A stretch of 64,000 nucleotides of DNA from Candidatus Poribacteria bacterium (lineage in GTDB: Bacteria > Poribacteria > WGA-4E > WGA-3G). The translations under genes were made by a program, and so were the position numbers. This document shows, in pieces, positions 2 through 46,995 of the stretch (position 1 is its first letter; each line of letters begins with the position of its first letter). Location: assembly GCA_963663765.2 (NCBI GenBank), contig CAXXUA010000006.1, forward strand, positions 457,610 through 521,609, written 5' to 3'. The notes under the pieces are model-generated. The model was not told the origin of the DNA. It saw nothing but the letters and a program-made list of their open reading frames with translations, and did no database searches.

Positions 2-3000
2 CGCGCACCCGTCTTTGCTGGTGATAGCGCCACACGCTCCGTAGCGGAAAACACAGGTACTGGTGTGAACATCGGCGATGTTGTCTCTGCGACTGACCCT
101 GATAACGATGATTTGACATACACACTCGGTGGCACGGACGCTGCATCATTTGACATTGGTAGCACGAATGGGCAACTCCGCACTAAAGATGCGTTAGACT
201 TTGAAGACAAACCTTCTTATACCGTCACCATCACTGCATCTGATGGAAAACTAACAGATAGTATCACGGTGTCAATCAAAGTTACGGATGTAGATGAGAA
301 CCGCGCACCTGTATTCACAGATGGCAACAGCACAACCCGATCCATCGCTGAAAATACGGATGCTGGCACAAACATCGGTAGTGCGGTAGCTGCAACGGAT
401 GCAGATGATGACGATTTGACATATACACTCGGTGGCACAGATGCTGCATCATTTGACATTGTAAGCACAAGTGGACAAATCAAAACAAAATCTGCATTGG
501 ATTATGAGACTAAAGCCTCTTATACAGTGGCCATTACGGCATCTGATGGAAATCTATCAGATAGTATCACGGTGACAATCAATGTTACCGATGTAGATGA
601 AAACAACGCGCCTGCGTTTGCCTTTGCAATCACGACCCGGTCCGTTGCTGAAAATACGGCATCAAACACAGATATCGGTGATGCCGTTTCTGCTACGGAT
701 GAAGATGACGATACATTGACATATACACTCGGTGGCACGAATGCGTCCTCGTTTAACATCGTTAGTTCATCAGGGCAGCTAAAAACGAAGGCTGCATTAA
801 ATTATGAGAACAAAGACGCATATTCTGTTACTGTTTCAGTCTCTGATGGGAATGGTGGTACCGATAGTATTAACGTTTCAATCAATATCTCAGATGTTAA
901 CGATCCACCTAAGTTCACCGATGGCAATAGCACATCTCGTTCTGTTGAAGAAGGGGTTGAGACCGATACCAACATAGGGACTCCAATCGCTGCAACAGAT
1001 GAGGATGGTGATACACTTACCTATTCCATGACGGGTGATGATGCCGATGCGTTCAGTATTGATGAGGAAACAGGACAGTTGAAAACAAAGGAGTCATTGG
1101 ATTACGAGACGAAAAACAGTTACGCTTTTTCTGTGTGGGTTGCTGATGCAGCCAATACAGAGGTGATTATTGTGACAGTGAAGGTTACGGATGTAGATGA
1201 AAACCGTGCACCTGTCTTTTCGGATGATAGTACAACGTTATCTGTTGCTGAGAATACGCGAGCAAGTACGAATATCGGAAATGCAATCACTGCCACCGAT
1301 CCCGATGGGGATAACTTGACCTACACACTCAGTGGAGATGATGCAAATTCTTTCTCAATTGTAAGTACGTCAGGACAACTGAAGACGAAATCATCTCTTG
1401 ATTATGAGGATACAAACTCATACTCCGTCACTGTCACGGCTTCTGATGGGGATCTTGAAGATAGCATAAATGTGACTATCAATGTCACCGATGACACGAC
1501 AGAGAATAACCCGCCCGTGTTCTCAGATGGCGAAACCACTACGCGTAGTATCGCTGAAAACTCCGATTTAGGAACAAGCATTGGCACACCTATCGTAGCG
1601 ACAGATACGGATAACGATACACTTAGCTATACCATCAGCGGTACTAATGCAGCGTCGTTTTCGCTTGTTAGTATTACAGGACAACTCAAAACAGTTGCGT
1701 CGCTTGATTATGAGCAAAAAGGCTCCTATTCTGTCACAATCTCCGTTCACGATGGCAATGGTGGGTCGGATTCTATTGCTGTCACGATCAACATCACGAA
1801 CGTTCACCCTGAAATAGCCGAACAAGGTGGTACGAATAATGCCCCTGTATTTACCGAGGGTGACAGCACCACTCGCTCTGTGCCCGAAAGAACAGCCTCT
1901 GGTGAAAATATCGGTGACCCCGTTACGGCTACTGATGCCGATGCCGATACGCTCACATACACACTTAGCGGCACAGATGCGGCCTCTTTCAGTATTGTCA
2001 GCTCTACCGGACAGTTACAAACGAGTGCAGCACTGGATTATGACATAAAAACTACCTATACGGTAACGGTCACTGTCGTTGATGGTGAGAGTGGCACAGA
2101 TACCATCACTGTCACGATAAATGTTGAAAATGTGAACCTTATATCAACTCGCACGCAAGCAGTGATAGATGAAATTGTTGAAAGGGCAATTGTGGAATCG
2201 GCAGATGATATTACAACTGAGCACCTTCAAAATATAACATATATGGATTTAGCTGTTTATACACTCACGTCTTTGAAAGCTGGAGATTTTGATGGACTTA
2301 CGGGTCTTGAAGAACTTTTGATGGATAGAAACAGCCTGACATCTATACCGGCTGGCATTTTTGACGAACTCACTTCATTGGAAAGACTTACTCTGTGGGC
2401 TAACAACTTCACTTCATTTCCCGATGGACTGTTTGATAATCTGACAAATCTTGAAGTGCTCCAAATAGGGTCTCAAAGTAGTACAGTTCAGTTAACATCG
2501 GGTATGTTTGATAATCTGACGAAACTGAGGGTTCTCAGCTTAAGTGGAAGCCATCTTTCTTCACTACCAGATGATATTTTTGATGAACTTACAAGTTTGA
2601 CTGATTTACGTTTAGAACATAACAATTTCACGACGTTCGCTGATGATACATTTGAGGATCTTACAGCACTTGTTAAACTTGAACTTGGTTTCAACGATAT
2701 AACTACATTAACGAGTGACGTTTTTAGTGGCTTAACGAATTTGGAACGTATTCATCTGTATGATAATGATTTTACAACAATACCCGCAGATATATTCGAA
2801 TCTAATACGAAATTAATATTCATTGAAATGTTTGATAATCAGTTAAGTTCAATACCGGATAACCTCTTTAAAGGTCTCAGTGTTTTGTTTGGTCTTGATA
2901 TACGTTCTAAAAAAGTTAACCCCTTACCGATAACAGCCTCGTTGGAGAAGGTTGCAGATGGACAGTTTAAAGTGAAAGTGCACTCGGGGGCACCCCTTGA

Positions 3001-3565
3001 AGTGGAGTTCCAATTGAGTGTATCGAATGGCAGTATCAATGGGGGTTCAACGCGTGCGACTATAGATGTGGGGAGTGTGGAAAGTAGTACGTTCACCGTC
3101 ACGCGTACCTCTGGTACAACTGGTGCAGTTACTGTGGATATTTCCACATTACCAAGGAAACCGTATGAGTACGGTTATTTAGGTTTCGAATTCGTGAAAT
3201 CTGCCGATCTACCGCTGACAGTGATCGCTGCGGGTGCCGCTCCTGTTAACACTGATTCCAATCCAATACCCGATCAAACTGCCTTGCTGTCAAACTATCC
3301 CAACCCGTTCAATCCTGAGACGTGGATACCTTATCAACTGGCAAATCCTACAGATGTATCATTGACGATCTATAACATCCGTGGTGTTGTAGTGCGACAG
3401 ATCGCGTTGAAACAGCAGCCTGCGGGGTTCTATACCACGCGTAACCGCGCACTGCATTGGGATGGACGCAATGTGGTCGGTGAAAAAGTTGCCGGGGGAG
3501 TGTATTTCTATCAGTTCAAGGCAGGCGAATATTCTGCCCTGCGGAAAATGTTGATTGTGAAGTAG
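2..3565 (+). CDS. Giant cadherin-repeat/LRR surface protein, paralogue 1 (5' part outside window)
   Basis: Frame open from base 2 (RAPVFAGDSATRSVAEN...). Seven cadherin-like repeats (A.D.D.D.LTY...G.L.T...LDYE), an LRR block at about 2140-2930, a beta-rich domain and a C-terminal NYPNPFNPETWIPY...LRKMLIVK tag. Confidence 0.9.
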   Translation, partial: RAPVFAGDSATRSVAENTGTGVNIGDVVSATDPDNDDLTYTLGGTDAASFDIGSTNGQLRTKDALDFEDKPSYTVTITASDGKLTDSITVSIKVTDVDENRAPVFTDGNSTTRSIAENTDAGTNIGSAVAATDADDDDLTYTLGGTDAASFDIVSTSGQIKTKSALDYETKASYTVAITASDGNLSDSITVTINVTDVDENNAPAFAFAITTRSVAENTASNTDIGDAVSATDEDDDTLTYTLGGTNASSFNIVSSSGQLKTKAALNYENKDAYSVTVSVSDGNGGTDSINVSINISDVNDPPKFTDGNSTSRSVEEGVETDTNIGTPIAATDEDGDTLTYSMTGDDADAFSIDEETGQLKTKESLDYETKNSYAFSVWVADAANTEVIIVTVKVTDVDENRAPVFSDDSTTLSVAENTRASTNIGNAITATDPDGDNLTYTLSGDDANSFSIVSTSGQLKTKSSLDYEDTNSYSVTVTASDGDLEDSINVTINVTDDTTENNPPVFSDGETTTRSIAENSDLGTSIGTPIVATDTDNDTLSYTISGTNAASFSLVSITGQLKTVASLDYEQKGSYSVTISVHDGNGGSDSIAVTINITNVHPEIAEQGGTNNAPVFTEGDSTTRSVPERTASGENIGDPVTATDADADTLTYTLSGTDAASFSIVSSTGQLQTSAALDYDIKTTYTVTVTVVDGESGTDTITVTINVENVNLISTRTQAVIDEIVERAIVESADDITTEHLQNITYMDLAVYTLTSLKAGDFDGLTGLEELLMDRNSLTSIPAGIFDELTSLERLTLWANNFTSFPDGLFDNLTNLEVLQIGSQSSTVQLTSGMFDNLTKLRVLSLSGSHLSSLPDDIFDELTSLTDLRLEHNNFTTFADDTFEDLTALVKLELGFNDITTLTSDVFSGLTNLERIHLYDNDFTTIPADIFESNTKLIFIEMFDNQLSSIPDNLFKGLSVLFGLDIRSKKVNPLPITASLEKVADGQFKVKVHSGAPLEVEFQLSVSNGSINGGSTRATIDVGSVESSTFTVTRTSGTTGAVTVDISTLPRKPYEYGYLGFEFVKSADLPLTVIAAGAAPVNTDSNPIPDQTALLSNYPNPFNPETWIPYQLANPTDVSLTIYNIRGVVVRQIALKQQPAGFYTTRNRALHWDGRNVVGEKVAGGVYFYQFKAGEYSALRKMLIVK

Positions 3566-3600
3566 TATTTTCACTGTGAAGTAGTGTTTTCACAGTGTAA

Positions 3601-3622
3601 GGCAGGGCTTTTGTGTCCTGCC
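3601..3622. terminator. GC-rich intergenic hairpin (possible terminator or mRNA-stabilising stem)
   Basis: ggcagg-gcttttgtgt-cctgcc followed by an A-run; a variant recurs at about 24983-25004. Confidence 0.4.
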
Positions 3623-3650: not shown

Positions 3651-6600
3651 ATGAATCGTCAATGTATTTTATCTCTAATTATAACGCTCTTGTTAATGAT
3701 TGGATTGACAGCTTATAGCGACATAACACCCGTATCAGACCGCACACCAGAGGTTCGTGATGCCATCGTTGATGCGATTTCAGGTGTAGATGCTGCAGTT
3801 GATGTAACTGAAACTCATCTTGCTGCAATCACAAGTCTCAATCTACGGAATGCAGGTATCCCAGAGCTTAAGACAGGTGATTTGTCAGGGCTGAGCGGAT
3901 TGACAAGCCTCAATCTCTACGGGAATGAGTTGAACACCCTACCTGACGGTATATTTGAAGGTTTGACTGCATTGACGACGTTACGGTTAGGAGGTAACAC
4001 CGTTGATCGGATGCCAATATCTGTTTCTCTTGAGAGAGTTTCTGATGGACAACTCAAGGCAGTTGCACCCACAGGCGCACCGTTTGCAATTGTAGTACCA
4101 ATTTCGGCAACCAACGGCAGCATAGCAGATAATGCTTCATCACTCTCTATAGCTAAAGGTAGCACAGAGAGTAGCCCGGTTATCATAACACGCTCCGAAA
4201 ACACCACCGTGGCAGTTATTGCTAACATCGGCACGTTACCGAGTTTGCCTACTAACCACTATGGCTATGTGCTATCAAAATCGAGTGCTTTACCGTTAGA
4301 AGTGGCATCGGCATTAGAAACCCCTCTCATAACGGAGGTTCTCCCTCCAACGGAGACAGAGGACACCCCATCTGAAAACGTTACGCCTGTCTTTACAGAT
4401 GGTAGTATTACCATCCGATCAATCGCAGAGAACACCGAATCAGACACCAACATCGGGAGGCCAATATCCGCTACAGACACCCAGACGCTCACTTACACAT
4501 TGGGTGGAATAGATAGAACATCGTTCAGTATAAACAGTGATACCGGACAGTTACTCACAAAAGCAAGCCTTGACTATGAAACAAAACGTGTCTACATAGT
4601 GGTTGTCACTTCTTCTGATGGTGTTCTTACAGATACTATTACCGTCGTCATTAGCGTTATAGATATATCAGAGACTACATTTGTTTCAACAGCTGCCCTT
4701 GCTGTCAGTGATAGAACACCGGCAGTCCGCGATGCTATTGTTGATGCGGTGTCAGGTGTGGATTCTGCTGACGACATTACCGCAATGCATCTTGCCTCCA
4801 TCACAAGTCTTAATCTGCGGGGCGCAGGTATTACATCCCTCAAAACAGGTGATTTTTCTGGTCTCACAGCTCTTTCCAGTCTTAATTTATACGGCAATAT
4901 GTTGAGCAGGCTACCGCATGGCATTTTTGATGGATTGACATCTCTGCTGTCACTTCGTTTAGGTGACAACCTCTTTGACCCGATGCCGCTTACCGTATCA
5001 TTGCAACAAGTTGGAACAGGACAATTCCGAGCTGTCATCCTCACAGGTGCACCTTTTGATGTTACCCTCACAATCGGTAATATGATGGTCACAATCTCTA
5101 AAGGCAGCCTGACCAGTGAAAACTTCACCGCTACAGGCATACCCACTATAAGTGCGTTACCGGTACTACCTGCTACCCATTTCGGGTATATCATTGCAAA
5201 CTCTGATGTGTGTAGCCGCACATTGCAAGTAAGCGACGCTATTGTTGCAGCACTTTCAGACATTACTGATTGCCGAAATGTTAGCGATGTTCACCTTGCA
5301 CAGATAACCCGTTTGGATTTAAGTGGTGTCTTTATAACATCACTTGCAGCAGACGACTTTGCAGGTTTACTCTCACTTACCACGCTTGACCTCAGTGATA
5401 ACCAACTCATCAATCTCCCTAAGAGATTTTTTGATGGTTTTCTATCACTAACAGCACTCAATCTGAGTGGAAACACTTTTGACCCATTGTCAATCAATGT
5501 GATGCTTGAAAAGGTCGGCACAAATCAAGTCAAAGTTGTTGTTCCAAGTGGTGCACCTTTTGAGATGACATTGCCGATAAATGTGGTGAATGGAGGAATT
5601 TTAGGGGGTACAAATACCATTACACTCATGCAAGGAAGTATGGAAAGTCAACCACTGACAATCATACGTGCGCCTAACACCTTTGATTTTGTCACTGCGG
5701 ACATCAGCACAATGCCGAACCTTCCAACAAACCATGCAGGTTATGTATTCACAAATTCTAATGATACCCCGTTGCAAATCTTTGAACAAATTAATGTTGC
5801 TCCTGTCTTCACAGATGACACTACCGCTACACGTTCCATAGCAGAAAACACGGAGGCTGGTACAGACATTGGCACGCCAATATCTGCAACCGATGTAAAT
5901 AATGATACACTCACCTATTCCTTGGGTGGTTCTGATGTAACTTGCTTTGATATTGATAGTACTACTGGACAACTGAAAACGAAAGAGGCACTTGACTATG
6001 AAACCAAAACATCTTATTCGGTAGTGATTACGGTTTCCGATGGTAGTTTGACAGATACCATTGACGTGACGATAAACATCACAGATGTGGACGAGGCACC
6101 GCCGAAAGAGGACGAGGTCGTTGTTATACCCAATGACGATGAGGTCGTTGTTCTACCCGATGACTATGATGAGGTCGTTGTAGAAGATACACCCCCACAA
6201 AATAACGCACCTATGTTCACCGATGGGAACAGCACAACCCGTTCCATAGCGGAGAATACCACTTCTGGTGCCAACATAGGCAATTCTGTGAGTGCGACCG
6301 ATGCGGATCGTGACACGCTTACATACACACTTGATGGAACTGATGCCTCTGCCTTCACCATCAATAGAACAAATGGACAATTGCAAACCAGTGCAGCACT
6401 TGACTTTGAAGCCAAGAACTCCTATTCCGTCACAATCACCGTCTCTGATGGAAAAGATGGCACCGATAGCATTAGCGTCACCATTAACATCACGAATGTA
6501 AACGAAGATATTCCAAACAACGACCCTGTATTTACCGATGGAAGTAATGCCATCCGTTCTATCGCAGAGAATACCGGTTCTGGTGTAGATATAGACACAC

Positions 6601-9600
6601 CTGTCTCAGCAACGGATGCGGATGATGGTAACACGTTATCTTATAGTTTGGGTGGCACGGATGCTGCAGCGTTCAGTATTGATAGCACATCCGGTCAATT
6701 GCGAACGAGTGCTGCTTTAGATTATGAGACGAAGAATACCTATTCCATCACAATATCTGTTTCCGATGGCAATGGTGGTAGTGATACTATATCGGTTACA
6801 ATAAACATTACGAATGTAGATGAAACCCCGACAAACAGTGCGCCTGAGTTCGCTGAGGGTGTTAGCACAAGTCGTTCTGTTGCTGAAAACACAGGTTCTG
6901 GTGTAGACATCGGTTCTGCTGTTTCAGCTACAGATGTGGACGGGGATACGCTCACATACACACTCGGTGGCACAGATGCCTCCTCCTTCAGTCTTGATAG
7001 TAGTTCCGGTCAATTGCGAACGAGTGCTTCCTTAGACTACGAGACAAAAACTTCCTATTCTGTGGTCTTGACAGTTTCTGATGAAAATGGAGGGAGTGAT
7101 AGTCTTCGTGTCACAATAAATATCACAAACATAGATGAAGCACCCGCGAACAATTCCCCTGTCTTCACATCTGACAGCACAACGCGCACTATAGCGGAAA
7201 ATACGGTGGTAGATACAAACATTGGTGCTGCCATCACCGCAACGGATGCGGATGACGATACATTGACTTATGGACTGACTGGAACTGATGCTGCGTCTTT
7301 CAGTATTGTCAGCCGCACAGGACAACTCAAAACGAAAGCAGTCCTCAATCACGAAGTTAAGGACTCCTATTCATTAATTGTCACCGTGTCAGATGGACAA
7401 GGTGGGAGTGATAGCATTAGTATCACTATCAACGTTTTGGATGTGAATGAATCCCCGTCATTTTCAGGAGAAAGTACGACCCGTTCTATCGCTGAAAACA
7501 CAACGTTGAACACGAACATCGGGGCAGCTGTTATTGCTACGGATCCGGATGACGGCACAACGCTTACATACACACTTGGTGGCACGGATGCTGCAGTGTT
7601 TAGTATTGATAGCAAAACCGGACAGTTGAAAACGAAGGGCGACTTGGACTTTGAAACCAAAAAGACTTATTCTGTGACAATTGCTGTTTCCGATGGAAAT
7701 CTTTCGGATATGATTACAGTAACTATAAACGTCACAGATCTTGACGAAACGCCCTCTAACAATCCACCCGTTTTCACAGATGGTGAAACCACCACCCGTT
7801 CTGTTGCAGAAAACACAGCAACAGGCACCGATATTGGTAATCCTATTGCTGTGACCGATGCTGACCAAAACACACTTGCTTATGCCATGAGTGGAGACGA
7901 TGCGTCAACGTTCAGTATTAACCTCAACACAGGACAACTGAAGACCAGCGCAGTGTTAAACTATGAGGTGAAAAAAGTCTACGAGGTGTCAGTTACTGTC
8001 AATGATGGTAGCGGCACAGATAGCATTGTGGTGACTATCAACGTTACGGATGTCAACGAAGCTCCCGTATTTGAGGATGATAGCGTAACACACACCATCG
8101 CAGAAAACACCGCAGCGAATACAAATATTGGGAGTGCTATTACCATCACTGATCCGGATGGTGATAACTTGACATATACACTTGGTGGAACAGATGCTGC
8201 CTCTTTTAACATTGGTAGCACAAATGGACAACTCCGAACAAAAGACGCGTTAGACTATGAAACCAAACGCACCTATTCTGTAACAGTCACCGCATCCGAT
8301 GGAAAACTATCAGATAGCATCACGGTGACAATCAATGTTACCGATGTAGATGAAAACAACGCGCCTGCCTTTGCCAGTGCAAGCACGACCCGGTCCGTTG
8401 CTGAGAATACAGGTTCTGGTGTAAACATTGGCAATGCGGTTTCCGCCTCCGACCCTGATAACGATGATTTGACATATACACTTGGTGGAACAGATGCTGC
8501 CTCTTTTAACATTGGTAGCACAAACGGACAACTCCGAACAAAAGACGCGTTAGACTATGAAACCAAACGCACCTATTCTGTAACAGTCACCGCATCCGAT
8601 GGAAAACTATCAGATAGCATCACGGTGACAATCAATGTTACCGATGTAGATGAAAACAACGCGCCTGCGTTTGCCAGTGCAAGCACGACCCGGTCCGTTG
8701 CTGAGAATACAGGTTCTGGTGTAAACATTGGTAGTGTCATCACCGCCACCGATCCTGATAATGATGATTTGACATATACACTGGGCGGAACAGATGCTGC
8801 CTCTTTTAACATTGGTAGCATAAATGGACAACTCCGAACAAAAGACGCGTTAGACTATGAAACCAAACGCACCTATTCTGTAACAGTCACCGCATCCGAT
8901 GGAAAACTATCAGATAGCATCACGGTGACAATCAATGTTAACGATGTAGACGAGAACCGATCTCCTGCGTTTGCCAGTGCAAGCACGACCCGGTCTGTTG
9001 CTGAAAATACAGGGTCTGGTGTAAACATTGGCAATGCGGTTTCCGCCACCGACCCTGATAATGATGATTTAACATATACACTGGGCGGAACAGACGCTGC
9101 CTCTTTTAACATTGGTAGCACAAATGGACAACTCCGAACAAAAGACGCGTTAGACTATGAAACCAAACGCACCTATTCTGTAACAGTCACCGCATCCGAT
9201 GGAAAACTATCAGATAGTATCACGGTGACAATCAATGTTACCGATGTAGATGAAAACAACGCGCCTGCCTTTGCCAGTGCAAGCACGACCCGGTCCGTTG
9301 CTGAGAATACGGCAACAAACACAGATATAGGTCATGTCGTTTCTGCTACGGATGAAGATGACGATACATTGACATATACGCTCGGTGGCACGAATGCGTC
9401 CTCGTTTAACATCGTTAGTTCATCAGGGCAGCTGAAAACGAAGGCTGCATTAAATTATGAGAACAAAAATTCATATTCTGTTACCGTTTCTGTCTCTGAT
9501 GGCGGAGGTGGTACCGATAGTATCAACGTTTCAATCAATATCTCAGATGTCAACGATCCACCTAAGTTCACCGATGGTAATAGCACATCTCGTTCTGTTG

Positions 9601-33162: not shown

Positions 33163-33205
33163 TTTCTCTTGTGTGAGGGGTTTTCAACCCCTCACACAAG
33201 AGAAA
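33163..33205. repeat. Perfect 20-bp-arm hairpin (REP-like or terminator)
   Basis: tttctcttgtgtgaggggtt-ttc-aacccctcacacaagagaaa. Confidence 0.75.
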
Positions 33206-33223
33206 ATGCCAACACTTTTTTCT

Positions 33224-33360
33224 TATAGTGAAATATACAATTAAGTTTACACGTTTTCTGTAGGAGCGATCTCCGAATCGCGACTGAACGCCTTGATTGT
33301 CGGGAATCGGAGTTCCCTCCTACACCTGAAAGTGTAAAAATAATTCTAAAATCCACTATA
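33224..33360. mobile_element. MITE-like element containing a GTAG-type REP
   Basis: Outer imperfect IR tatagtg...tttacac / gtgtaaa...cactata; inner gtaggagcga...ccctcctac at 33260-33323. It abuts the break point of IS3 orfB. Confidence 0.65.
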
Positions 33361-33450
33361 AATTGACGCTTATGGGTGTCGCAAATTTTTCGCACAGAGT
33401 AGTCGGTTCGCAAAGTTTCTACAATTCCTCGTTTTTCTGCTGGAGCCAAC

Positions 33451-33732
33451 TCAGCAAGGTTGAGACTTTTTTTGGATGTCCAAAGCAAGGGTCAACTTAT
33501 CAACGAGTTGCTCAAGTTGAACAATCATCTGTTGAGACACGTGGGTCTGTTTATCAATAGGTTCAAAGAGGGTTGCTGCATTTTCAAGAAGTTGGCGTTT
33601 CCACTTTGAGAGTTGAACATCGCTGAGATTATGTTTACGACACAGTTCCGCTTGTGAACTTTGACCGCTAAGTGCCTCAATCACAACTTCAGCTTTAAAT
33701 TCGGGTGTGAATCTTCTTCGTTTGGTCTCCAT
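33451..33732 (-). CDS. IS3-family transposase OrfA (HTH)
   Basis: RRRFTPEFKAEVV...SQAELCRKHNLS..QLSKWKRQ followed by a coiled-coil segment. Confidence 0.88.
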   Translation of the reverse strand: METKRRRFTPEFKAEVVIEALSGQSSQAELCRKHNLSDVQLSKWKRQLLENAATLFEPIDKQTHVSQQMIVQLEQLVDKLTLALDIQKKSQPC

Positions 33733-33778
33733 CGGATTCTCCTTTTAGTTTAGATTGATATTATATCACAATCTTATA

Positions 33779-33948
33779 TTAGAACTTGTAGCGAGTAAGA
33801 GCTAAGAATTCAAAGTAAATGGAGATCTGAAGCAGTAAGAAAAGGATACAAATAATCTCTCTTTCTTTCCCAATTGACCACATCCTTATGTTTTACTCAC
33901 TATGACTTCTTAGACAGTGTTCTGAATTTCCGATGGCTACAGTTCTAA
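33779..33948. mobile_element. Putative 170-bp MITE inserted between the IS3 left end and orfA
   Basis: Imperfect IR ttagaacttgtagc / gctacagttctaa; it would explain the long distance from the IS end to the orfA ATG. Confidence 0.5.
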
Positions 33949-34016
33949 CTATAACTGAATTTGGGTCTAAAAAATGGATGGCACTTCATTAGTTAGACTA
34001 TCGTAACATTGTTGTG

Positions 34017-36311: not shown

Positions 36312-36407
36312 CAGAAAAATAGGGTATTACCTAATTAACAATAACCTCCGAAGGTAGGTGCGTATTGAAACCGAGTTTACTGGCTACTTTTAGCTGAAAA
36401 CCGATTG

Positions 36408-36644
36408 CTATTTCGCTATCAATATCTTCCACTGATATGTGTAATCGCCTGCCTTCAGTTCATAGAAATAAACACCATTTGCCACGCGTTCACTGACAGC
36501 ACTCCGACCATCCCAATGCGCCTCGCACGGTTAGGATCCGTAAAGAATCCAGCCTTTGCTGACCAAAGCCTTGTTGACACACAACGTTTCCACTAATATC
36601 GTAGATCGTGATAGAAACATTAGTCGGTGATGCAAGTTGATAAG
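36408..36644 (-). pseudogene. Orphan frameshifted C-terminal FlgD-Ig/T9SS-like tag
   Basis: The minus strand reads YQLASPTNVSITIYDISGNVV / AGFFTDPNRA / AHWDGRSAVSERVANGVYFYELKAGDYTYQWKILIAK* across two frameshifts. Confidence 0.85.
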
Positions 36645-36849
36645 ATATCTTATGGGAAAACCACGCATCCTATCCGGACGGCATTCTGCCAAAACTATGC
36701 ATTAATATAAATCCCTAACAAAATTAAATTTCAATATTTTTGATCAAAAACATTTGAAATTAAAACAATATTAGACTATTATAATAATTAATGCAAATTA
36801 AATATTATAGACTACTATTTATTGCTTCTTATAGATTATCAATGGAAGG

Positions 36850-39800: not shown

Positions 39801-42800
39801 TGCGACGGATGCGGATGGCGATACGTTAGCCTATACCTTCGGTGGAACAGATGCAAGTTCATTTACGATTGATAGCAGTTCAGGGCAATTGAGAACCGGG
39901 GAAGCATTGGATTTTGAAACGAAAAACGCTTATTCCGTTACTATTACCGTTTCTGATGGGAATGGTGGTAGCGATAGCATAAGTGTCACCATTAACGTCA
40001 CGGATGTAGATGAAGCACTGCCAAATAACGATCCTGTATTTACAGCGGGTGATAGAGTCAGCCGTTCTGTAGATGAGAATACCGGCTCAGGTGTGAACAT
40101 CGGTGACCCAGTTTCTGCAACTGATGCGGATGATGATATACTCAGCTATAGTCTCGGTGGAACGGATTTCAGTTCATTTACGATTGATAGCAGTTCAGGC
40201 CAGTTGCGCACCTACGCATCGCTGGATTATGAGACCAAATCCACTTATTCAGTGACAATAAGTGTTTCTGATGGTAAGGGTGGTAGCGATTCGATCTTGG
40301 TTGCCATCAACATTACCAATGTAGACGAAACAGTGCCAAACAGTGCGCCTGTGTTCGCATTGGACAGTACCACGCGTTCAGTTGCGGAAAATACGGCGGC
40401 AAATACAAACATTGGTGCTGCTATCACCGCAACAGATGACGACAACGATAGCTTGACTTACGGTCTTAACGGGACAGACGCGGCTTCTTTTAGTATTGAT
40501 GTCAACACTGGACAACTGAAAACAAAGATAGACCTCAATCACGAAACAAAAGACTCCTATTTGGTAACCGTATCGGTTTCTGATGGCAAAGGTGGTACAG
40601 ACAGCATTAGTGTCACGATTAATGTGTCAGATGTAAACGAATCCCCTGAGTTTACGGATGGTGCTACCACAACACGCGCCATTGCAGAGAACGCCGGGGC
40701 AGGTGCCAACATCGGAATTGCTGTATCTGCAACCGATCCTGATGATGGGGAAACGCTCACCTACACGCTGGGCGTAACAGACGGTGCAGCTTTTGATATT
40801 GGTAATACGACTGGTCAGTTAAAAACGAAAGCAGCCCTTGATTACGAAACCAAAAACTCTTATTCAGTTATCATGATTGTATCTGATGGAACACTTTCAG
40901 ATACAATCATGGTAACAATTAACGTCACAAACTTGGACGAAACACCCTCCAACAATCCACCTGTTTTTACGGATGGGAATAGCACGATCCGCACGGTAGC
41001 AGAAAATACAGTGGCTGGCACAAATATCGGCACCCCTATTTCTGCAACCGATGTGGATAATAACACACTCACTTATCTACTGAGTGGGGATGATGCCTCA
41101 TCGTTTGGCATTGTTAGCACGACAGGGCAACTCCAAACCAGGGCATCACTCAACCACGAAATCAAAGACGAGTATGAGGTCATGGTCACCGTTTCTGATG
41201 GCAGCACTACCGATACTATCATGGTGACGATTAGCGTCACAGATGTCAACGAATCCCCCGTTTTTGTAAATGACAGCATAACACGATCTGTCGCAGAAAA
41301 CACAGCTGCGAATACTAACATCGGCAGTGCCATTACCGCTACCGACCCCGATGGCAATAATTTGACGTATACACTCGGTGGTACCGATGCAACGTCGTTT
41401 AATATTGATGAGGACACAGGCCAACTGAAAACAAAGGCAGCACTGGACTATGAAACCAAAAGAGTATATTCCGTCACTATCACTGCCAAAGACGAAGACA
41501 ACCTCAGCGAAAGTATCAACGTAACCATCAATATCACAGATGTAGACGAGAACCGGGCACCTGTGTTTACAGAAGGAGACAGCACCGCACGTTCTGTCGC
41601 AGAAAATACGGGGAGTGGTGTAAATATCGGCACACCTGTGTCCGCAACTGATGCGGATGGTGATACGCTTGAATATACGTTAAGTGGCACTGATGCGGCA
41701 TCCTTTGATATTGATAGCATAACAGGGCAGCTCCGCACAAAGGCTGCGTTGGATTATGAAACGAAAGACACATATTCCGTAATAATAACTGCCTCTGACA
41801 GCAAACTTTCAGACACTATCACGGTAACGATTAATGTGACGAATGTTGATGAGAACCGTCCACCTGTGTTTTTGAGTGAAAGCACAACGCGTTCCGTTGC
41901 TGAAAATACAAGCTCTGGTATGGACATTGGCAGTGCCGTTTCGGCAAATGACCCCGATGGTGATGATTTGACATACACGCTCAGTGGCACAGATGCAACG
42001 TCGTTTGATATTGATGAGGACACAGGCCAACTCAAAACAAAGGCAGCACTGGACTATGAAACCAAAAGGTCATACGCCGTCACCATCACTGCCAAAGACG
42101 AAGACAATCTCAGCGATAGTATCAATGTAACCATTAATGTTACTAATGTAGACGAGAACCGGGCACCTGTATTTACAGAAGGTAGCAGCACGACACGTTC
42201 TGTCGCAGAAAATACGGGGAGTGGTGTAAATATCGGCACACCTGTGTCCGCAACTGATGATGATCAAGATACACTTACTTACACACTCGGTGGTACTGAT
42301 GTAGACTCCTTTGATATTGACACTGCCACAGCACAACTGAAAACAAAGAACGCATTAGATTATGAGATAAAGTCATCTTATTCACTCACTATTACAGCAA
42401 TGGATGGAAATAGCGGAGAAGATACCATTGATGTTACCATCAATGTCACCGATGCAAACGATCCACCCATTTTTACAGATGGAGATAGCACCACACGTTC
42501 AATTGCAGAGAACACACCACGAAATAAAATTATCGGTGATAGGGTGGTAGCAACGGATGTAGATGGTGACAAAGTGACCTACAGTCTCAGTGGCACAGAT
42601 ATGAACTCGTTTGGGATCAGACCAAACATCGGACGATTGGTAACCAAGGCATCGCTTGACTTTGAAACAAAAAGCACGTACGAGGTGACTGTCACCGCAT
42701 CCGATAGCAATGGTGGCATTGACACGATTGATGTGGCTATCCATGTCATTGATGTCAATGATGCCCCAGTGTTTACAGATGGAGATAGCACCACACGTTC

Positions 42801-45800
42801 TGTCGCAGAAAATACTACGGCGGATACTGATATTGGTACACCTGTGTCCGCAACCGATGATGATCAAGATACGCTTACTTACATACTCGGTGGCACCGAT
42901 GCAGCATCGTTTGATATCGTTAGCACAACAGGACAACTGAAAACAAAGAACGCTTTAGATCATGAGACAAAGTCGTCTTATACGATCACTATCACCGTTG
43001 ACGATCAAAACGGAGGTGAAGATACCATCAACGTCACGGTCAACATCACCGATGTAACAGAATCCTTGCTTGAAGGGCGTACCGGTGCGGTACGTTCGGC
43101 TATATTAAGTAAATTGTCCGGTGTAGATGCCGATGACGTTACAGCAGAACACCTCGCATCAATTACCGAAATCGTTATTTCAACGCAATCACCTAAACTT
43201 GGGGATTTTGATGGACTCGCAGGTTTGGTAAGGTTGTATATCGGACATAATCTGATACGTTCATTGCCGGCGGGTATTTTTGATGATCTCGTTAACCTGG
43301 AATATATTGGTCTGGGCCTCAATCTGTTTGAAACATTGCCGGGAGGTTTATTTGATAATAATACAAAACTGAAGACTATCCTTTTGGATATTGGCGAGTT
43401 AAGATCGCTGCCGGGAGGTTTATTTGATAATAATACAGAGTTGACAAAGATTGATCTACACGATAACAAATTGTCATCATTACCGACAGGGTTCTTCAAC
43501 AATAACACAGAACTGGTAACTCTCGATCTCAGTAGGAATCAGATACATTCATTACCAACAGGATTTTTTGACAATAATACCAAACTGGAAAACCTACACC
43601 TTAATAGAAATGGGTTGCATTCATTGCCAAGCGGTATTTTTGATAAGCTTACTAAGCCGACATCCCTCAATCTTGATAGCAACAACTTAGAATCGCTGCC
43701 TGCTGGTGTATTCGACACTCTCACGTTACTGAATACACTTGAACTCCGAGATAATAAGTTGACTACGTTACCAAACAACATTTTTGATAAAAACACGGCA
43801 CTGACACATCTATATCTGCAAAGGAACGAATTGACTTCGTTGCCAAGCGGTGTTTTTGACAAGCTCACTAATCTAACCAGACTGGATCTGAACAATAATG
43901 AATTGTCATCGTTTCCCACGGGTATCTTTGACAAACTGACTAACCTGACATTTCTCAAAATGTATGACAATGATTTTACTTCGTTGCCAAGTAGCATCTT
44001 TGACAAACTTATAAACCTGACAAGGCTTGATTTACGACAAAACGGGTTGACTTCGTTGCCGGACAATATATTTAAGGGACTCACAGAATTGAGCGAGGTG
44101 AAATTGGAATCTAATGCGGTGGACCCACTATCAGTGACTGTTTCTCTGGTTAAGGTAGAATCAGGTAAGTTCAAGACAACAGTTCATACCGGCGCACCAT
44201 TTGATATAAACTTACCTATTACCGTTGTAAATGGAAGTCTCAGCGGTGGAACGACAAGTATTTCTATTTCCACCGGTAGCATTGAAAGTAATACATATAC
44301 GGTGACACGCACTACTGGCACAACGGGTGCTGTTACTGTGAATATTGGAACATTGCCAACAATACCCAGTGATCATTCCGGATATGCCCTAGTTAAACCC
44401 ACAACAGGTTTGCCGTTAATAGTCATTGATGAAAATGTGGTGAATACAAAAGGCGCAAATATAGACGAAACGCCAATCAATCCGCCACTCAACGGGCGCA
44501 CACAACAGGTGCAGGATGCGATTGTTGCCGCTATTGATGGGATAGATTCTGCTGACGATGTGACAGCAGAACACCTCGCAGCAATTACATCATTGTATCT
44601 AGATCAAAATTCGATCACCTCGCTAAAATCTGGTGATTTTGATGGACTAAGTGCTTTGTCAACTCTCACTCTGTCCGGCACGGGTTTGACCGCATTGCCT
44701 TCTGGTATTTTTGACAATAACACAGCACTGGAAACGCTCAATCTGTTCAACAACGATTTGACCTCATTGCCTTCCGGTATTTTTGACAATAACACAGCAC
44801 TGACAAGTATGCATCTGAACAATAATGCTTTGACCTCATTACCATCAGGTATTTTTGACAATAATACAGCACTGAATACGATCCGTCTGCACCTAAACGA
44901 TTTGACCTCATTGCCGTCAGGTATCTTTGACAATAATACAGCACTGAATACGATCAATCTGTCCAGCAACGGCACGGGTTTGGCGTCATTGCCCTCAGGT
45001 ATTTTTGACAATAACACAGCACTGAAAACGATCAATCTGCACGACAACGGTTTGACCTCATTGCCTTCAGGTGTCTTTGACAATAACACAACAGTGACAA
45101 CGATCTATTTGTACGACAATGCTTTGACCTCGTTGCCTTCCGGTATTTTTGACAATAATACAGCACTGAAAACGATCTATTTAGCCGAGAATTCTTTGAC
45201 CTCATTATCTTCAGATGTCTTTGACAATAACACAGCAGTGACACGTATTGAGTTGTCCGGTAATTCTTTGACTTCATTGCCTTCAGGTGTCTTTGACAAC
45301 AACACAGCAGTGACAACGATCCATCTGTACAATAATGCTTTGACCTCGTTGCCTTCCGGTATTTTTGACAATAACACAGCACTGAAAACGCTCTATCTGC
45401 AAATAAACGGTTTGACCTCATTGCCTTCCGGTATTTTTGACAATAACACAACACTGAAAACGCTCTATCTGCAAAACAACGAAATTAGCGATGTCTCGGA
45501 ACTTGAACATTTGACATCTCTAACGGATTTACAGATTGGTGGAAATCTAATTTCAGATTACGGGCCGCTTCGTAGACTCAGGGCAGCGAATCCTGATATT
45601 AAGTTTGATATTGATATTGATAACAATCCTCCTGTCTTTACAGATGGCAGCAGTACTACCCGCTCCGTATCTGAGAATACTACTGCAGGACAAAACATCG
45701 GCAGCGCCGTTACTGCCACAGATACGGACACCGAGAATACGCTTACCTATACGCTCGGTGGAACTGATGCATCATCATTCGATATTGTCAGCACATCGGG

Positions 45801-46995
45801 GCAGCTGCAAACAAAGGCAGCTCTGGACTATGAAACAAAGTCGTCGTATACGGTCACCGTTTCTGTCTCTGATGGCAATGGTGGCATAGATAGGATCACT
45901 GTCACCATCAACGTCACGAATGTAGCGGAAATAAGGACACCGGTCAATGAACGCACACAGCAGGTGCAAGATAGTATTGTTGATGCGATAGAAGGCGTTG
46001 ATAATGCTGATGATGTAACCATCACACACATCACATCAATTACCTCACTTGATCTGTCTAATGAATTAATTAGATCCATATCAGCCGGTGATTTTGACGA
46101 TCTTACAGCACTGACAACATTGAATCTGAGCAGTAATTCTTTGAGTTCTTTACCGTCGGGTATTTTTGACGATCTCACGGCACTGACAACACTCGACCTC
46201 AGTAGTAATTCTTTGAGTTCATTGCCTTCCGATATATTTGAGAAACTTACAAAATTAACAACACTTGACCTATACGAAAATTCCTTAAGCACATTGCCAT
46301 CAGGTCTCTTTAAAGGACTGACCGCGCTGTCATCACTGTTTATTGAAGATAACACCGTTGATCCGCTACTGATCATGGTATCATTGGAAAAAGTTATTGA
46401 TGGTCAGTTCAAGGCGGTTTGTCCTATTTGCGCACCATTTGATATTGAGGTACCGCTGACTGCCACGAACGGAACTATCAGCGACAATGCAACGAGTGTC
46501 ACTATTTCCACTGGGACGGTGGAGAGTGGGGTGGTCGCTATCACACGCACCGCTGGCACAACTGCTGCTGTCACCGTTGACATTGGCACTTTACCATCAT
46601 TGCCAGCATTACACGACGGGTACACACTTGTTAGAACTTCGTCAGATTTGCCGTTGACGGTAATCGACGCTATCCCCGAATCACCGAGACAGTTTACACC
46701 AGACAAAACCGCACTGCTGGCGAACTATCCCAATCCGTTCAACCCTGAAACGTGGATACCGTTTCAACTTGCTAAGTCTGTTGATGTCACGCTGACGATT
46801 TACGATGTCCGTGGTGTTGTGGTGCGTAAGATGTCGTTAGGGTATAAACTTTCTGGCGTATATACGAACCGTCGTCGTGCTATCCACTGGGATGGTCGAA
46901 ATATGCATGGTGAAAAAGTTGCAGGTGGTGTCTATTTTTATCACTTCAAAGCAGGAAATTATAGTGCTTTGCGTAAGATGTTGATTTTGAAATAG
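36850..46995 (+). CDS. Giant cadherin-repeat/LRR surface protein, paralogue 5 (3381 aa)
   Basis: Signal peptide, 3 short LRR modules, 15 cadherin units, three terminal LRR blocks (about 43070-44130, 44490-45560 and 45940-46365) and the C-terminal tag. Confidence 0.93.
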   Translation: MLFLKLSILTILLCALTILSTAGNISITPVASRTVQVRDAIVNAIPNVNTSADVTTAQLATITSLDLRGKGITALQSGDFSGLTSLTNLNLYNNELSSLPDGIFEGLTALTALRLGKNKVTPLPFTVSLEKVGDGQFKSVVPTGAPFDIVVPITATNGSISSGTTSVTIIKGSTTSTSLTVTRTAGTTAVVSVDIGTLPTLPINHYGYMLSKSDTLPVEVISRLENPPTEETPDTTETDDSPAPNTAPIFVDGTITVRSIAENTAADVDIGTAVGATDVDEDALTYTLRGTDMSSFTIDSSSGQLKTKSALDYETKRIYTVTITASDGNLIATISVIISVIDVAEMALTTTFLTVSNRTPAVRDAIVTAVPGISTAENITVAHLASITSLDLRGKGITVLQSGDFSGLTSLTNLNLYGNMLSRLPIGVFEGLTVLTSLRLGGNLVDPMPLIVSLQRIGIGRFRALIHTGAPFDVVLLINNADTTTITIPKGSVQSPVFTSTSANVSIGALPSLPANHYGYILAKSTACNRTSQVSDGIVAALSDITDCRNVTDVDLASITSLNLSNASITSLEAGDFEGMLLLTTLDLSNNQLTELPDHIFEGLLSLTHLNLSGNAAAPLLIPYSLEKVGSNQFKVVVPTGTPFNIQMPISVTNGSVAGDVNAITLPVGTIQSMPFAVTRTPNTMGAVMVGFGTLPNLPASHSGYALAKSNTLEMSGAINVAPVFTEGTTTIRSIAENTAVGTNIGNTISATDANNDTLTYSLSGSDAAAFDIDKLTGQLKTKTALDYETKNSYSVTITVSDGTLTDTIDVTINITDVDENRAPVFTEGGTTTRTISENTDAGVNIGNPVSATDLDKDTLIYSLVGNAAAFDIVSTTGQLKTKAALDYETRTSYSVSVSVTDGKLTDTIAVTINITDVDETPLKADEVVVLLDEDEDDIVVTTDDDKEETPTPNNAPVFTDGNSTMRSIAENRVSGMDIGSAVSATDADGDTLAYTFGGTDASSFTIDSSSGQLRTGEALDFETKNAYSVTITVSDGNGGSDSISVTINVTDVDEALPNNDPVFTAGDRVSRSVDENTGSGVNIGDPVSATDADDDILSYSLGGTDFSSFTIDSSSGQLRTYASLDYETKSTYSVTISVSDGKGGSDSILVAINITNVDETVPNSAPVFALDSTTRSVAENTAANTNIGAAITATDDDNDSLTYGLNGTDAASFSIDVNTGQLKTKIDLNHETKDSYLVTVSVSDGKGGTDSISVTINVSDVNESPEFTDGATTTRAIAENAGAGANIGIAVSATDPDDGETLTYTLGVTDGAAFDIGNTTGQLKTKAALDYETKNSYSVIMIVSDGTLSDTIMVTINVTNLDETPSNNPPVFTDGNSTIRTVAENTVAGTNIGTPISATDVDNNTLTYLLSGDDASSFGIVSTTGQLQTRASLNHEIKDEYEVMVTVSDGSTTDTIMVTISVTDVNESPVFVNDSITRSVAENTAANTNIGSAITATDPDGNNLTYTLGGTDATSFNIDEDTGQLKTKAALDYETKRVYSVTITAKDEDNLSESINVTINITDVDENRAPVFTEGDSTARSVAENTGSGVNIGTPVSATDADGDTLEYTLSGTDAASFDIDSITGQLRTKAALDYETKDTYSVIITASDSKLSDTITVTINVTNVDENRPPVFLSESTTRSVAENTSSGMDIGSAVSANDPDGDDLTYTLSGTDATSFDIDEDTGQLKTKAALDYETKRSYAVTITAKDEDNLSDSINVTINVTNVDENRAPVFTEGSSTTRSVAENTGSGVNIGTPVSATDDDQDTLTYTLGGTDVDSFDIDTATAQLKTKNALDYEIKSSYSLTITAMDGNSGEDTIDVTINVTDANDPPIFTDGDSTTRSIAENTPRNKIIGDRVVATDVDGDKVTYSLSGTDMNSFGIRPNIGRLVTKASLDFETKSTYEVTVTASDSNGGIDTIDVAIHVIDVNDAPVFTDGDSTTRSVAENTTADTDIGTPVSATDDDQDTLTYILGGTDAASFDIVSTTGQLKTKNALDHETKSSYTITITVDDQNGGEDTINVTVNITDVTESLLEGRTGAVRSAILSKLSGVDADDVTAEHLASITEIVISTQSPKLGDFDGLAGLVRLYIGHNLIRSLPAGIFDDLVNLEYIGLGLNLFETLPGGLFDNNTKLKTILLDIGELRSLPGGLFDNNTELTKIDLHDNKLSSLPTGFFNNNTELVTLDLSRNQIHSLPTGFFDNNTKLENLHLNRNGLHSLPSGIFDKLTKPTSLNLDSNNLESLPAGVFDTLTLLNTLELRDNKLTTLPNNIFDKNTALTHLYLQRNELTSLPSGVFDKLTNLTRLDLNNNELSSFPTGIFDKLTNLTFLKMYDNDFTSLPSSIFDKLINLTRLDLRQNGLTSLPDNIFKGLTELSEVKLESNAVDPLSVTVSLVKVESGKFKTTVHTGAPFDINLPITVVNGSLSGGTTSISISTGSIESNTYTVTRTTGTTGAVTVNIGTLPTIPSDHSGYALVKPTTGLPLIVIDENVVNTKGANIDETPINPPLNGRTQQVQDAIVAAIDGIDSADDVTAEHLAAITSLYLDQNSITSLKSGDFDGLSALSTLTLSGTGLTALPSGIFDNNTALETLNLFNNDLTSLPSGIFDNNTALTSMHLNNNALTSLPSGIFDNNTALNTIRLHLNDLTSLPSGIFDNNTALNTINLSSNGTGLASLPSGIFDNNTALKTINLHDNGLTSLPSGVFDNNTTVTTIYLYDNALTSLPSGIFDNNTALKTIYLAENSLTSLSSDVFDNNTAVTRIELSGNSLTSLPSGVFDNNTAVTTIHLYNNALTSLPSGIFDNNTALKTLYLQINGLTSLPSGIFDNNTTLKTLYLQNNEISDVSELEHLTSLTDLQIGGNLISDYGPLRRLRAANPDIKFDIDIDNNPPVFTDGSSTTRSVSENTTAGQNIGSAVTATDTDTENTLTYTLGGTDASSFDIVSTSGQLQTKAALDYETKSSYTVTVSVSDGNGGIDRITVTINVTNVAEIRTPVNERTQQVQDSIVDAIEGVDNADDVTITHITSITSLDLSNELIRSISAGDFDDLTALTTLNLSSNSLSSLPSGIFDDLTALTTLDLSSNSLSSLPSDIFEKLTKLTTLDLYENSLSTLPSGLFKGLTALSSLFIEDNTVDPLLIMVSLEKVIDGQFKAVCPICAPFDIEVPLTATNGTISDNATSVTISTGTVESGVVAITRTAGTTAAVTVDIGTLPSLPALHDGYTLVRTSSDLPLTVIDAIPESPRQFTPDKTALLANYPNPFNPETWIPFQLAKSVDVTLTIYDVRGVVVRKMSLGYKLSGVYTNRRRAIHWDGRNMHGEKVAGGVYFYHFKAGNYSALRKMLILK
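44685..45480 (+). repeat. 72-bp LRR-coding repeat, 11 copies, with a constant half and a variable half
   Basis: ttgacctcattgccttccggtatttttgacaataacacagcactg (LTSLPSGIFDNNTAL) alternates with a variable segment of about 27 bp. Confidence 0.92.

Follow-up and report, generated by a model that had tools for sequence, protein, structure and literature searches.

Giant cadherin- and LRR-containing putative surface adhesins encoded by a tandem gene array in a probable poribacterial sponge symbiont

Introduction

BspA-type proteins of Bacteroidota (e.g., BspA of Tannerella forsythia) combine a solenoid of leucine-rich repeats (LRRs; families LRR_5 and LRR_8) with Ig-like domains and a type IX secretion system (T9SS) C-terminal domain (CTD); they form multigene families and are presumed to bind host or microbial partners. 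Here, we compare them and other long or modular proteins with an array of five giant paralogous genes in the final 64 kb of contig C6 (521,609 bp) of a probable Candidatus Poribacteria genome (G000; 6.35 Mb in 15 contigs, 97.8% complete). This whole stretch of 64,000 nucleotides is called the window throughout, and coordinates without a contig name refer to it. We read the array as members of a large inherited family of giant putative cell-surface adhesins in a probable poribacterial sponge symbiont, and give this reading a probability of roughly 0.6. The encoded proteins resemble the BspA type in having an LRR solenoid followed by β domains and a T9SS-type CTD, in belonging to a multigene family and in presumably binding host and microbial ligands. 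In contrast to BspA-type proteins, they are 5 to 10 times larger, carry LRR modules at both ends with a rod of 15 to 23 cadherin units between them, contain a post-LRR β-sandwich that lacks a Pfam model, and come from another phylum, in which the T9SS is unproven.

The Listeria internalins (InlA, InlB, InlH, InlF) are similar in their cap-LRR-β-sandwich order, as the best fold matches, in binding ligands on the concave face, which we propose here as well, and in having paralogue-specific LRRs within a multigene family. However, the repeats of the family described here are 24 rather than 22 residues long, no LPXTG or GW anchor is present, and each protein has several modules. As none of the five genes matched an NCBIfam internalin model (the gene at 34017-36311 alone did, below cut-off) and the repeats have 24 residues, we do not count them as internalins. 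Another relevant group comprises the SiiE and LapA/MpIBP-type adhesins, in which a long calcium-binding β-sandwich rod holds ligand-binding domains off the cell (PMC6272769, PMC7493085). These adhesins use type I secretion, repeats-in-toxin (RTX) sequences, an N-terminal retention module and BIg repeats, whereas the window family has cadherin units, a T9SS-type tail and a large number of paralogues where those adhesins have one or two; neither RTX nor haemolysin-type calcium-binding families appear among the Pfam and NCBIfam matches of the window, and we do not place the genes among the RTX adhesins. By analogy, polymorphic-toxin, Rhs and contact-dependent inhibition (CDI) loci likewise switch sharply from a conserved N-terminal bulk to a diverse C-terminal module, and the variable lymphocyte receptor (VLR) genes of lampreys carry their LRR variation on the concave face, as here. 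Unlike these systems, the window family has no toxin-immunity pair, orphan cassette store or assembly machinery, its cassettes being the ends of whole genes.

Within the phylum itself, cadherin, LRR and Ig-like domains with signal peptides have been catalogued, along with a TIGR04183 tail on many genes (PMC3909097), and cadherin and LRR domains are enriched in metagenome-assembled genomes (MAGs) from sponges (PMC8163846). These papers count domains, and the protein type is shared with the array. In the literature searched, we found no account of a fixed module grammar, tandem arrays, a mosaic of homogenised 5' and unique 3' parts, the post-LRR domain, or PorU-, PorV- and SprA-like genes; tables S7-S9 of PMC3909097 may bear on prior description. 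The original prediction, which was made from the sequence alone, had rated the system its best candidate for an undescribed one. That rating holds for the family as such, of which the literature searched gave no account; it does not hold for the kind, as poribacterial cadherin/LRR proteins with a Por-type tail have been published (PMC3909097).

Gene and module organization of the array

Genes were located with a listing of open reading frames (ORFs) and with Pfam and NCBIfam scans of the window. These place five giant paralogues (A, B, C/D, E and G) on the plus strand at positions 2-46995, in line with the five co-oriented paralogues originally proposed:

2-3565, plus strand: gene A, of which the 3' 1187 codons lie in the window; stalk 2-2140, LRR cassette 2141-3277, CTD 3278-3562
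3651-12305, plus strand: gene B, intact, 2884 aa; N-terminal region (three LRR modules and one cadherin unit) 3651-5780, stalk 5781-10817, LRR cassette 10818-12017, CTD 12018-12302; 17 cadherin units in the whole gene
12345-20000, plus strand: gene C/D, 5' part; N-terminal region 12345-14513, followed by stalk up to an insertion sequence (IS) that interrupts a cadherin unit
21325-24966, plus strand: gene C/D, 3' part; remainder of the stalk to 22170, cassette 22171-24678 (two LRR solenoids and two cadherin units), CTD 24679-24963
25108-32811, plus strand: gene E, intact, 2567 aa; N-terminal region 25108-27246, stalk 27247-31659, LRR cassette 31660-32523, CTD 32524-32808; 15 cadherin units in the whole gene
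36850-46995, plus strand: gene G, intact, 3381 aa; N-terminal region 36850-38997, stalk 38998-43062, cassette 43063-46707 (three LRR solenoids and one cadherin unit), CTD 46708-46992

Gene A starts 5.3 kb upstream of the window (C6:452298, plus strand) and, when completed from the contig, encodes 2929 aa. The listed ORFs of gene C/D are C (12345-20051, without the C-terminal tag) and D (21472-24966, without the N-terminal region). Gaps of 85, 39 and 141 nt separate the genes in the A-B-C/D-E run; the stretch between E and G (32812-36849) breaks the array and holds an IS3 remnant, an unrelated LRR gene on the minus strand and an inverted relic of the C-terminal tag.

Four module hidden Markov models (HMMs), for the cadherin unit, the LRR N-cap, the post-LRR domain and the C-terminal tag, were built from gene E and iterated on the family. 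All five genes show one order of modules: a signal-peptide-like start, a cap-LRR-domain module, one cadherin unit, two further cap-LRR-domain modules, a run of cadherin units, 1 to 3 longer cap-LRR modules with or without the domain, and the tag. The start, as judged by eye from the translations, is basic, continues with a hydrophobic run and leads into A-Y-S/D-I-T-P. A short acidic linker breaks the cadherin run after unit 1 or 2, the C-terminal LRR modules are separated by single or double cadherin units, and the rod counts 13 to 20 further units beyond the N-terminal one, giving proteins of roughly 280-410 kDa each. With 17, 17, 23, 15 and 15 cadherin units and 1, 1, 2, 1 and 3 C-terminal LRR solenoids in A, B, C/D, E and G, the HMMs returned the same numbers as had been read from the letters. 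The N-terminal region that had been described as shared is indeed so, although its ~715 residues resolve into three cap-LRR-β-sandwich modules and one cadherin unit.

In the five genes, E-values range from 1.9e-42 to 3.8e-197 for Pfam Cadherin and from 2.8e-26 to 3.3e-140 for LRR_8, so low that the identification of both domain types is far beyond chance. The eukaryotic cadherin model PF00028 matches 15-18 stretches per complete gene (E 1e-166 to 1e-197), and the units also strongly match Pfam models of the FAT4/CELSR type. The consensus of the cadherin units (87 of 87) keeps AENT, ATDxDxD, LDYE and DV(N)E-NxAPxF at 80-99%; we take these conserved acidic motifs to be calcium-binding motifs.

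The ~105-residue domain that follows the LRRs has no Pfam family (best match, E 0.17), and precomputed Pfam lists for a protein with five copies of it (P0015) show LRR families alone. When 1.84 billion proteins were searched with a profile made from the 19 window copies, 1243 cluster representatives matched; 366 did so at E ≤ 1e-30, and most are giant proteins with 2 to 9 copies. An AlphaFold model of the first module of gene E (25198-25761; predicted local distance difference test score (pLDDT) 95.3, predicted template-modelling score (pTM) 0.87) consists of two cap helices, three LRR strands and a β-sandwich of 7-8 strands. For the LRR part of this module, Foldseek gave the internalins InlF, InlC2, InlH and InlB and lamprey VLRs as the nearest folds in the PDB; the β-sandwich drew weak Foldseek matches. 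Across 52 C-terminal LRRs, entropy is 3.27 bits at the concave positions 2, 3, 5, 7 and 8, versus 1.62 bits at positions 10-24; the C-terminal figures alone are used, a comparison of N- with C-terminal repeats being uneven (11 versus 52). The variation of the C-terminal LRRs thereby sits on positions predicted to form the concave face.

Sorting domain and candidate export genes

The conserved C-terminal tag reported in the original prediction is present in all five genes; it spans 95 residues, is 73-93% identical among them and matches the T9SS sorting domain. Scores for TIGR04183 (cut-off 23) are above the cut-off in A (28.8 bits) and D (28.6 bits), and the isolated CTD of gene G scores 30.0 bits with Por_Secre_tail (PF18962; cut-off 27) and 33.7 bits with FlgD_ig. 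We accordingly assign the tag to the CTDs of T9SS type A cargo. Candidates for parts of the corresponding machinery are encoded elsewhere in the genome:

G000 C5:1256500-1265500, C15:35947-39936 and C4:1171500-1181500: candidate T9SS parts (PorU-like, PorV, SprA-like)

Three PorU-like ORFs are present, and the one that was scanned (2133 aa) matches Peptidase_C25 at 284.5 bits, carries a Peptidase_C25 propeptide and a sorting tail of its own, and is followed by a β-barrel gene. PorV is matched at 31.9 bits by Pfam (cut-off 27) and at 108.8 bits by NCBIfam (cut-off 250). In the 2014 single-cell study, the Por-type tail is noted on poribacterial eukaryote-like proteins and the Por structural genes are reported as not found (PMC3909097). 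Since both the sorting tail and candidates for PorU, PorV and SprA are now at hand, we consider export by a T9SS-like route plausible, yet unproven.

Sequence divergence and mosaic structure

Among the five window genes, protein identity is 59-74% in the N-terminus, 62-74% in the stalk and 42-50% in the C-terminal LRR region, next to the more conserved tag. The strong divergence that had been claimed for the terminal LRRs is thus confirmed against 59-74% elsewhere; of the constant base that had been proposed with it, the common architecture stands, while constancy of sequence is only moderate within the window. In their alignable parts, the genes are 70-78% identical in DNA, and the sole tract at ≥85% lies in the sorting domains of A and C/D (95.6% over 270 nt). 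Synonymous divergence (dS) of the N-terminal regions is 0.74-2.1, and the ratio of nonsynonymous to synonymous rates (dN/dS) is 0.16-0.27 in all 10 pairs; judged by these distances, the window genes are old.

More recent events are visible in the stalks and cassettes. A 300-nt unit is repeated 3.8 times in gene B (8162-9310; 93% matches), a 303-nt unit 5.5 times in gene C/D (83% matches) and a 72-nt LRR unit 11 times in gene G (44685-45481; 80% matches). The modular make-up and the stalks of different length noted at the outset are both borne out, and stalk length, on these repeats, changes by tandem gain of units.

Younger paralogues elsewhere show where homogeneity ends. Three family genes on contig C13 have N-termini that are 94-95% and stalks that are 93-96% identical, with cassettes at 39-45%; at the DNA level, they are 97.0% identical over 8439 nt, after which blastn finds no match, and their dS is 0.07. 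A related species (G003) has N-termini at 90-97% and cassettes at 20-51% identity, and its tandem array of four genes differs in stalk length and has 2, 1, 5 and 4 C-terminal LRR modules. An N-terminal tree was made from 20 regions (12 of G000, 4 of G003 and 4 of a third genome, G007), excluding members without a canonical start and the loci of the genomes G005 and G009. In this tree, the four rows of G003, the four rows of G007 and the C13 trio each form clades at 100% support, and window genes A, C/D and E cluster at 98%, the grouping being by genome and array. Because the 97% identity of the 5' parts ends at the cassettes and the tree groups by genome and array, the data fit a process in which gene conversion or recent duplication homogenises the alignable 5' parts and would stop where cassettes cannot pair.

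The cassettes themselves are individual. All 22 that were compared are unique, the best non-self match being 27-62%. For the gene B cassette, a protein search ranked by summed LRR bits gave 801 as the lowest score among the matches listed, with the self-match at 1028; an orthologue of ~75% identity would score below the matches listed, and a genome search was used instead, in which 0 of 100 other genomes of the family contained the cassette at E ≤ 1e-100. The cassette of gene E has a counterpart in 1 of 100 genomes (G098; 78% identity over 209 residues), and it shares 74% identity with the cassette of P0246, a metagenome protein whose N-terminus and stalk are 61% identical to those of E, no nearer than to those of the other four genes, and which has 12 cadherin units versus 15. 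The histories of the modules are incongruent in this pair, as the original prediction had anticipated. Between E and G098, dN/dS is 0.18 for the LRR cassette and 0.26 for the pair of cadherin units before it. This one case speaks for conserved cassette types that may be carried on interchangeable 5' parts, not for hypermutation.

Family size and distribution

When all open frames of at least 120 codons in G000 were scanned with the family HMMs, 27 contained family modules. They correspond to about 19 genes with 59,270 codons (roughly 178 kb, or 2.8% of the assembly), of which about 14 lie outside the window array. Clusters occur on C6 (the window), C13 (five in tandem), C3 (three plus one), C5 and C2, and a single gene on C7. 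On C5 (1059037-1078746, plus strand), a 6570-aa relative with 12 LRR caps, 11 post-LRR domains and 7 cadherin units is the LRR-dominated extreme of the family grammar; its cassette region shares 62% identity with the one of C2:83485-89391.

In a search of G000 and 30 relatives with the N-terminal region, 19 of the 31 genomes matched, with 0 to 82 matches within one genus. The post-LRR profile was positive in 54 of 151 genomes of the phylum, 50 of these being among the 99 genomes of one family, and copy numbers ranged from 0 to at least 32 per genome. The nearest loci and the named homologues are from Candidatus Poribacteria MAGs, which fits the initial guess of a sponge symbiont; the probable host of the array is a sponge-associated member of this phylum.

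Insertion sequences, gene decay and sequencing runs

Gene C/D is interrupted by a mobile element, and further remnants lie within and beyond the array:

20001-21315, plus strand: IS of the ISAs1 family, 1315 bp; transposase ORF 20137-21300 (NCBIfam transpos_ISAs1, 234.3 bits versus cut-off 70)
33192-33732, minus strand: IS3-type transposase remnant; orfA-like HTH_Tnp_1 ORF 33451-33732, then an ORF without family match
34017-36311, minus strand: unrelated secreted LRR protein, 764 aa; carries none of the four family module HMMs and is not a family member
36411-36681, minus strand: family CTD relic, present as two frame-shifted pieces that share 53-64% identity with the CTDs of genes A, C/D and B (tblastn)
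51481-51702, plus strand: remnant of the 5' end of a sixth family gene; its 74 codons share 78% identity with residues 1-74 of gene A (tblastn)

The ISAs1 element has perfect 18-bp terminal inverted repeats, is flanked by a 9-bp target duplication (GTTATTGAA, at 19992-20000 and 21316-21324) and has ten further full-length copies in the genome (98.6-99.8% identical). Together with the transposase, these features identify it as a member of its family. When the element and one copy of the duplication were removed in silico, a single open frame of 3765 codons with 23 cadherin units was restored, and C and D are therefore one recently broken gene. The 23-unit gene had been listed as complete; its unit count is correct, but it is a pseudogene split by the IS. 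On C3, another family gene is likewise disrupted, in this case by a different IS (1256 bp). IS elements appear to be very active in G000, having broken at least two family genes.

Unitigs from four sequencing runs of two studies were compared with the window; one of these, run X1, may be the source sample. In all four runs, unitigs are identical to the window on both sides of the IS in gene C/D, including the cassette, over 922 nt to the left and over 911-1120 nt plus 1324 nt to the right, and base differences among the listed unitigs fall solely inside the IS. The left unitigs (19109-20030) reach 30 letters into the IS in all four runs and the right ones 19-30 letters; by a rule of 31 letters per side, no record bridges either IS junction. 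An empty-site joint was not among the listed records of the four runs, contigs of this sort showing presence and not absence. The single listed joint, from 22566 to 22717, skips 150 nt, has a side of 26 letters and appears to be a repeat artefact. In run X1, reads cover the ISAs1 element at ~13x the depth of its flanks.

Discussion

According to the reading that we favor, each of these putative adhesins would leave the cell by way of Sec and a T9SS-like outer-membrane translocon, in that order, after which a PorU-like C25 peptidase would cleave the sorting domain and the protein would be retained at the surface via its new C-terminus, or released. Cadherin units measure 4.5 nm each, and the calcium-stiffened rod would accordingly hold two binding ends some 70-100 nm apart. 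The concave faces of the LRRs would bind ligands of the host matrix, of host cells or of microbes, the specificity of the cassette differing from paralogue to paralogue and the N-terminal triad binding a ligand common to all. The family grows by tandem gene duplication and by tandem gain of cadherin and LRR units, with gene conversion evening out the alignable 5' part and the sorting domain and halting at the unalignable cassettes. This history of gene birth and death with gene conversion, and of decay by IS insertion, truncation and relics, is largely established by the comparisons above.

Which end faces outward bears on how the proteins might work. The original prediction had assumed a constant base and a variable tip. 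In Porphyromonas, cleavage of the T9SS sorting domain leaves a new C-terminus, and linkage of this end to anionic lipopolysaccharide anchors the cargo (PMC8545088, PMC4560394, PMC5562754). If this mode of anchoring by the new C-terminus holds here, the variable LRRs would be membrane-proximal; the proposed polarity is then probably inverted, with the variable LRRs probably beside the outer membrane and the N-terminal triad at the far end of the rod. Variable modules beside the bacterial surface rather than at the tip would, if true, be an arrangement not described for bacterial adhesins.

Several observations weigh against the favored reading. In some marine bacteria, cadherin-like domains serve as carbohydrate binders and not as spacers, and for this reason the rod may not be a passive stalk. 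Fold likeness to the internalins spans just ~85-93 LRR residues, with a template-modelling score of at most 0.40. Purifying selection on the cassettes is read from one pair, E and G098, and the G098 frame ends early inside the β-sandwich, because of which that copy may itself be decaying. With regard to export, the TIGR04183 scores of B (22.5 bits) and G (21.3 bits) are just under the cut-off and E is not listed. The T9SS machinery set is incomplete in our searches of G000: the SprA-like ORF (2159 aa) is matched in five collinear pieces, the best at 64.8 bits versus a cut-off of 200, and has no Pfam match; the GldK search returned 60 generic domain matches of the sulfatase-maturase type; and GldM was not matched in G000, in a search whose control was silent in every genome too.

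The original prediction had further proposed a system that generates diversity. In one such scenario, a constant 5' region would be joined repeatedly to a library of 3' LRR cassettes, by a programmed or recombination-driven process, so that the population shifts the module on display, much as polymorphic toxins swap their C-termini and lampreys assemble their VLRs. The sharp edge between constant and variable parts in the C13 array, where 97% identity over 8.4 kb gives way to no DNA match, speaks for such a process, as do the same contrast in G003, the incongruent histories of E and P0246, the 5'-end relic and the inverted CTD relic in the window, the uniqueness of every cassette examined and the failure to find the B cassette in other genomes of the family. 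Nonetheless, no recombinase, invertase or reverse transcriptase is associated with the genes, and no silent, promoterless cassette store was seen, each cassette being part of a full gene with its own start. All four runs are identical over the C/D cassette and no convincing rearrangement joint is listed among them, although rare variants can hide in contigs. Moreover, the window genes are old and recent exchange among them is limited to one 270-nt tract, and gene conversion limited by homology accounts for the sharp edge without dedicated machinery. A diversity-generating retroelement was rejected as a candidate mechanism on finding no match to the reverse transcriptase family RVT_1 in the 97.8% complete genome, the control being positive in 3 of 14 genomes. 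Given this result, the low dN/dS of the E cassette, the unchanged C/D cassette and the fact that one of the five window genes is dead, the generation of diversity is not borne out; programmed variation seems improbable to us, and we read the repertoire as fixed in the genome, without a dedicated diversifying machine. That the array could be an artefact, with strain variants of one gene collapsed or strung together, comes to mind for a highly repetitive region in a metagenome-type assembly of 15 contigs. We give this almost no credence and reject mis-assembly: the paralogues are 22-30% apart at the DNA level, with a unique cassette in each, the contig is more than half a megabase long, similar arrays occur in single-contig genomes of relatives, and the unitigs are identical in all four runs.

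Other readings concern what the proteins do. They might be released and unanchored, serving as bridging or matrix proteins or as devices for capturing particles or polysaccharides, with the cadherin-like units perhaps binding carbohydrate. Binding-type modules at both ends could cross-link host matrix, microbes or food particles; anchoring chemistry outside Bacteroidota is not known; according to precomputed Pfam lists, the LRR-plus-sandwich module is joined to metallopeptidase, WD40, fn3 and Calx-beta domains in other poribacterial proteins; and Poribacteria are described as polysaccharide degraders (PMC8163846). Set against this are the PorU-like peptidases and PorV, which serve attachment in the known system, and the linker calcium motifs typical of rigid rods that the cadherin units retain, and we regard release as an unlikely primary role, if one with a real chance of being correct. 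It is more doubtful still, though conceivable, that the genes form a two-ended recognition repertoire, in which the common end (N-terminal LRR triad and rod) would be kept uniform inside each genome by gene conversion, a large and mostly species-specific pool of C-terminal LRR cassettes would be exchanged between genes and lineages by recombination at the stalk end, and the cassette sets would define host or partner specificity, with the variable modules beside the cell surface. A host-mimicry shield, with eukaryote-like surfaces mainly evading or modulating phagocytosis and immune recognition by the sponge rather than mediating adhesion, appears quite improbable. The strong matches to PF00028 and FAT4/CELSR-type models are in keeping with it, single eukaryote-like proteins, including one with cadherin and FG-GAP domains, have been assayed for effects on bacteria-sponge interaction (PMC13747020), and an ankyrin precedent is cited in PMC3909097. 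However, the assayed proteins belong to other families (PMC13747020), the sequence holds nothing that separates a shield from adhesion, and rods of 15-23 units with paralogue-specific LRR sets would be unnecessary for a simple shield.

For the adhesin reading, the value of the locus lies in what it adds to knowledge of cadherin and LRR proteins in sponge symbionts, which so far stands at the level of domain counts. It supplies a defined protein grammar, a newly modelled post-LRR domain of ~105 residues, candidates for PorU, PorV and SprA-like export genes, of a kind reported to be missing from this phylum, and an evolutionary pattern of homogenised 5' parts and unique 3' cassettes, with 0 to >30 modules among species of one genus. 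The N-terminal triad, the cassettes and the rod are defined pieces with which to ask what poribacteria hold on to in the sponge, and which end points outward is testable.

Other features of the window

The array is bracketed by paralogous genes of ~1100 aa on the minus strand (48056-51289 and C6:448835-452311; 72% identical), in which nothing is recognised beyond an AbiEi_4-like helix within the last ~25 residues. There are 9 or more copies in G000 (43-72% identical) and no fewer than 1352 homologues at E ≤ 1e-30, the named ones being titled "hypothetical protein [Candidatus Poribacteria]". Another copy lies beside the G003 array, and the family gene at C3:402-410 kb has a fragment next to it; P0284, a 60% homologue, is listed on a contig whose length (24,872) equals that of the contig of P0246. 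This gene may be a conserved neighbour of adhesin arrays. The 5' relic at 51481-51702 adjoins a copy of the same neighbour gene that also precedes gene A, and the flanking paralogues together with this A-like relic after the downstream copy are a sign of a past segmental duplication.

Directly 3' of gene G, at 47010-47862, a 210-nt unit is repeated in tandem (4.1 copies, 98% matches) around a core formed by a long GC-rich palindrome with a predicted fold of -110 kcal/mol per unit. By blastn, parts of the unit match the genome 841 times, and other tandem arrays, at C6:349-353 kb, are among these matches; the repeat resembles a family of repetitive extragenic palindromic (REP) or bacterial interspersed mosaic element (BIME)-like elements. 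The unrelated LRR protein at 34017-36311 has internalin-type 22-residue LRRs, a Big_1-like region, a long Q/E-rich low-complexity linker, a lamin-tail domain and, at its C-terminal end, a ~110-residue domain without assignment. Further downstream, 54255-58685 encodes a 736-aa WD40 β-propeller protein and two tandem Laminin_G_3 (concanavalin-like lectin) proteins of ~270 aa, all eukaryote-like. An IS630-type element with HTH_32 and DDE_3 in two ORFs is found at 60492-61449, and the contig ends (62863-64000) inside another ISAs1 copy, 99.8% identical.

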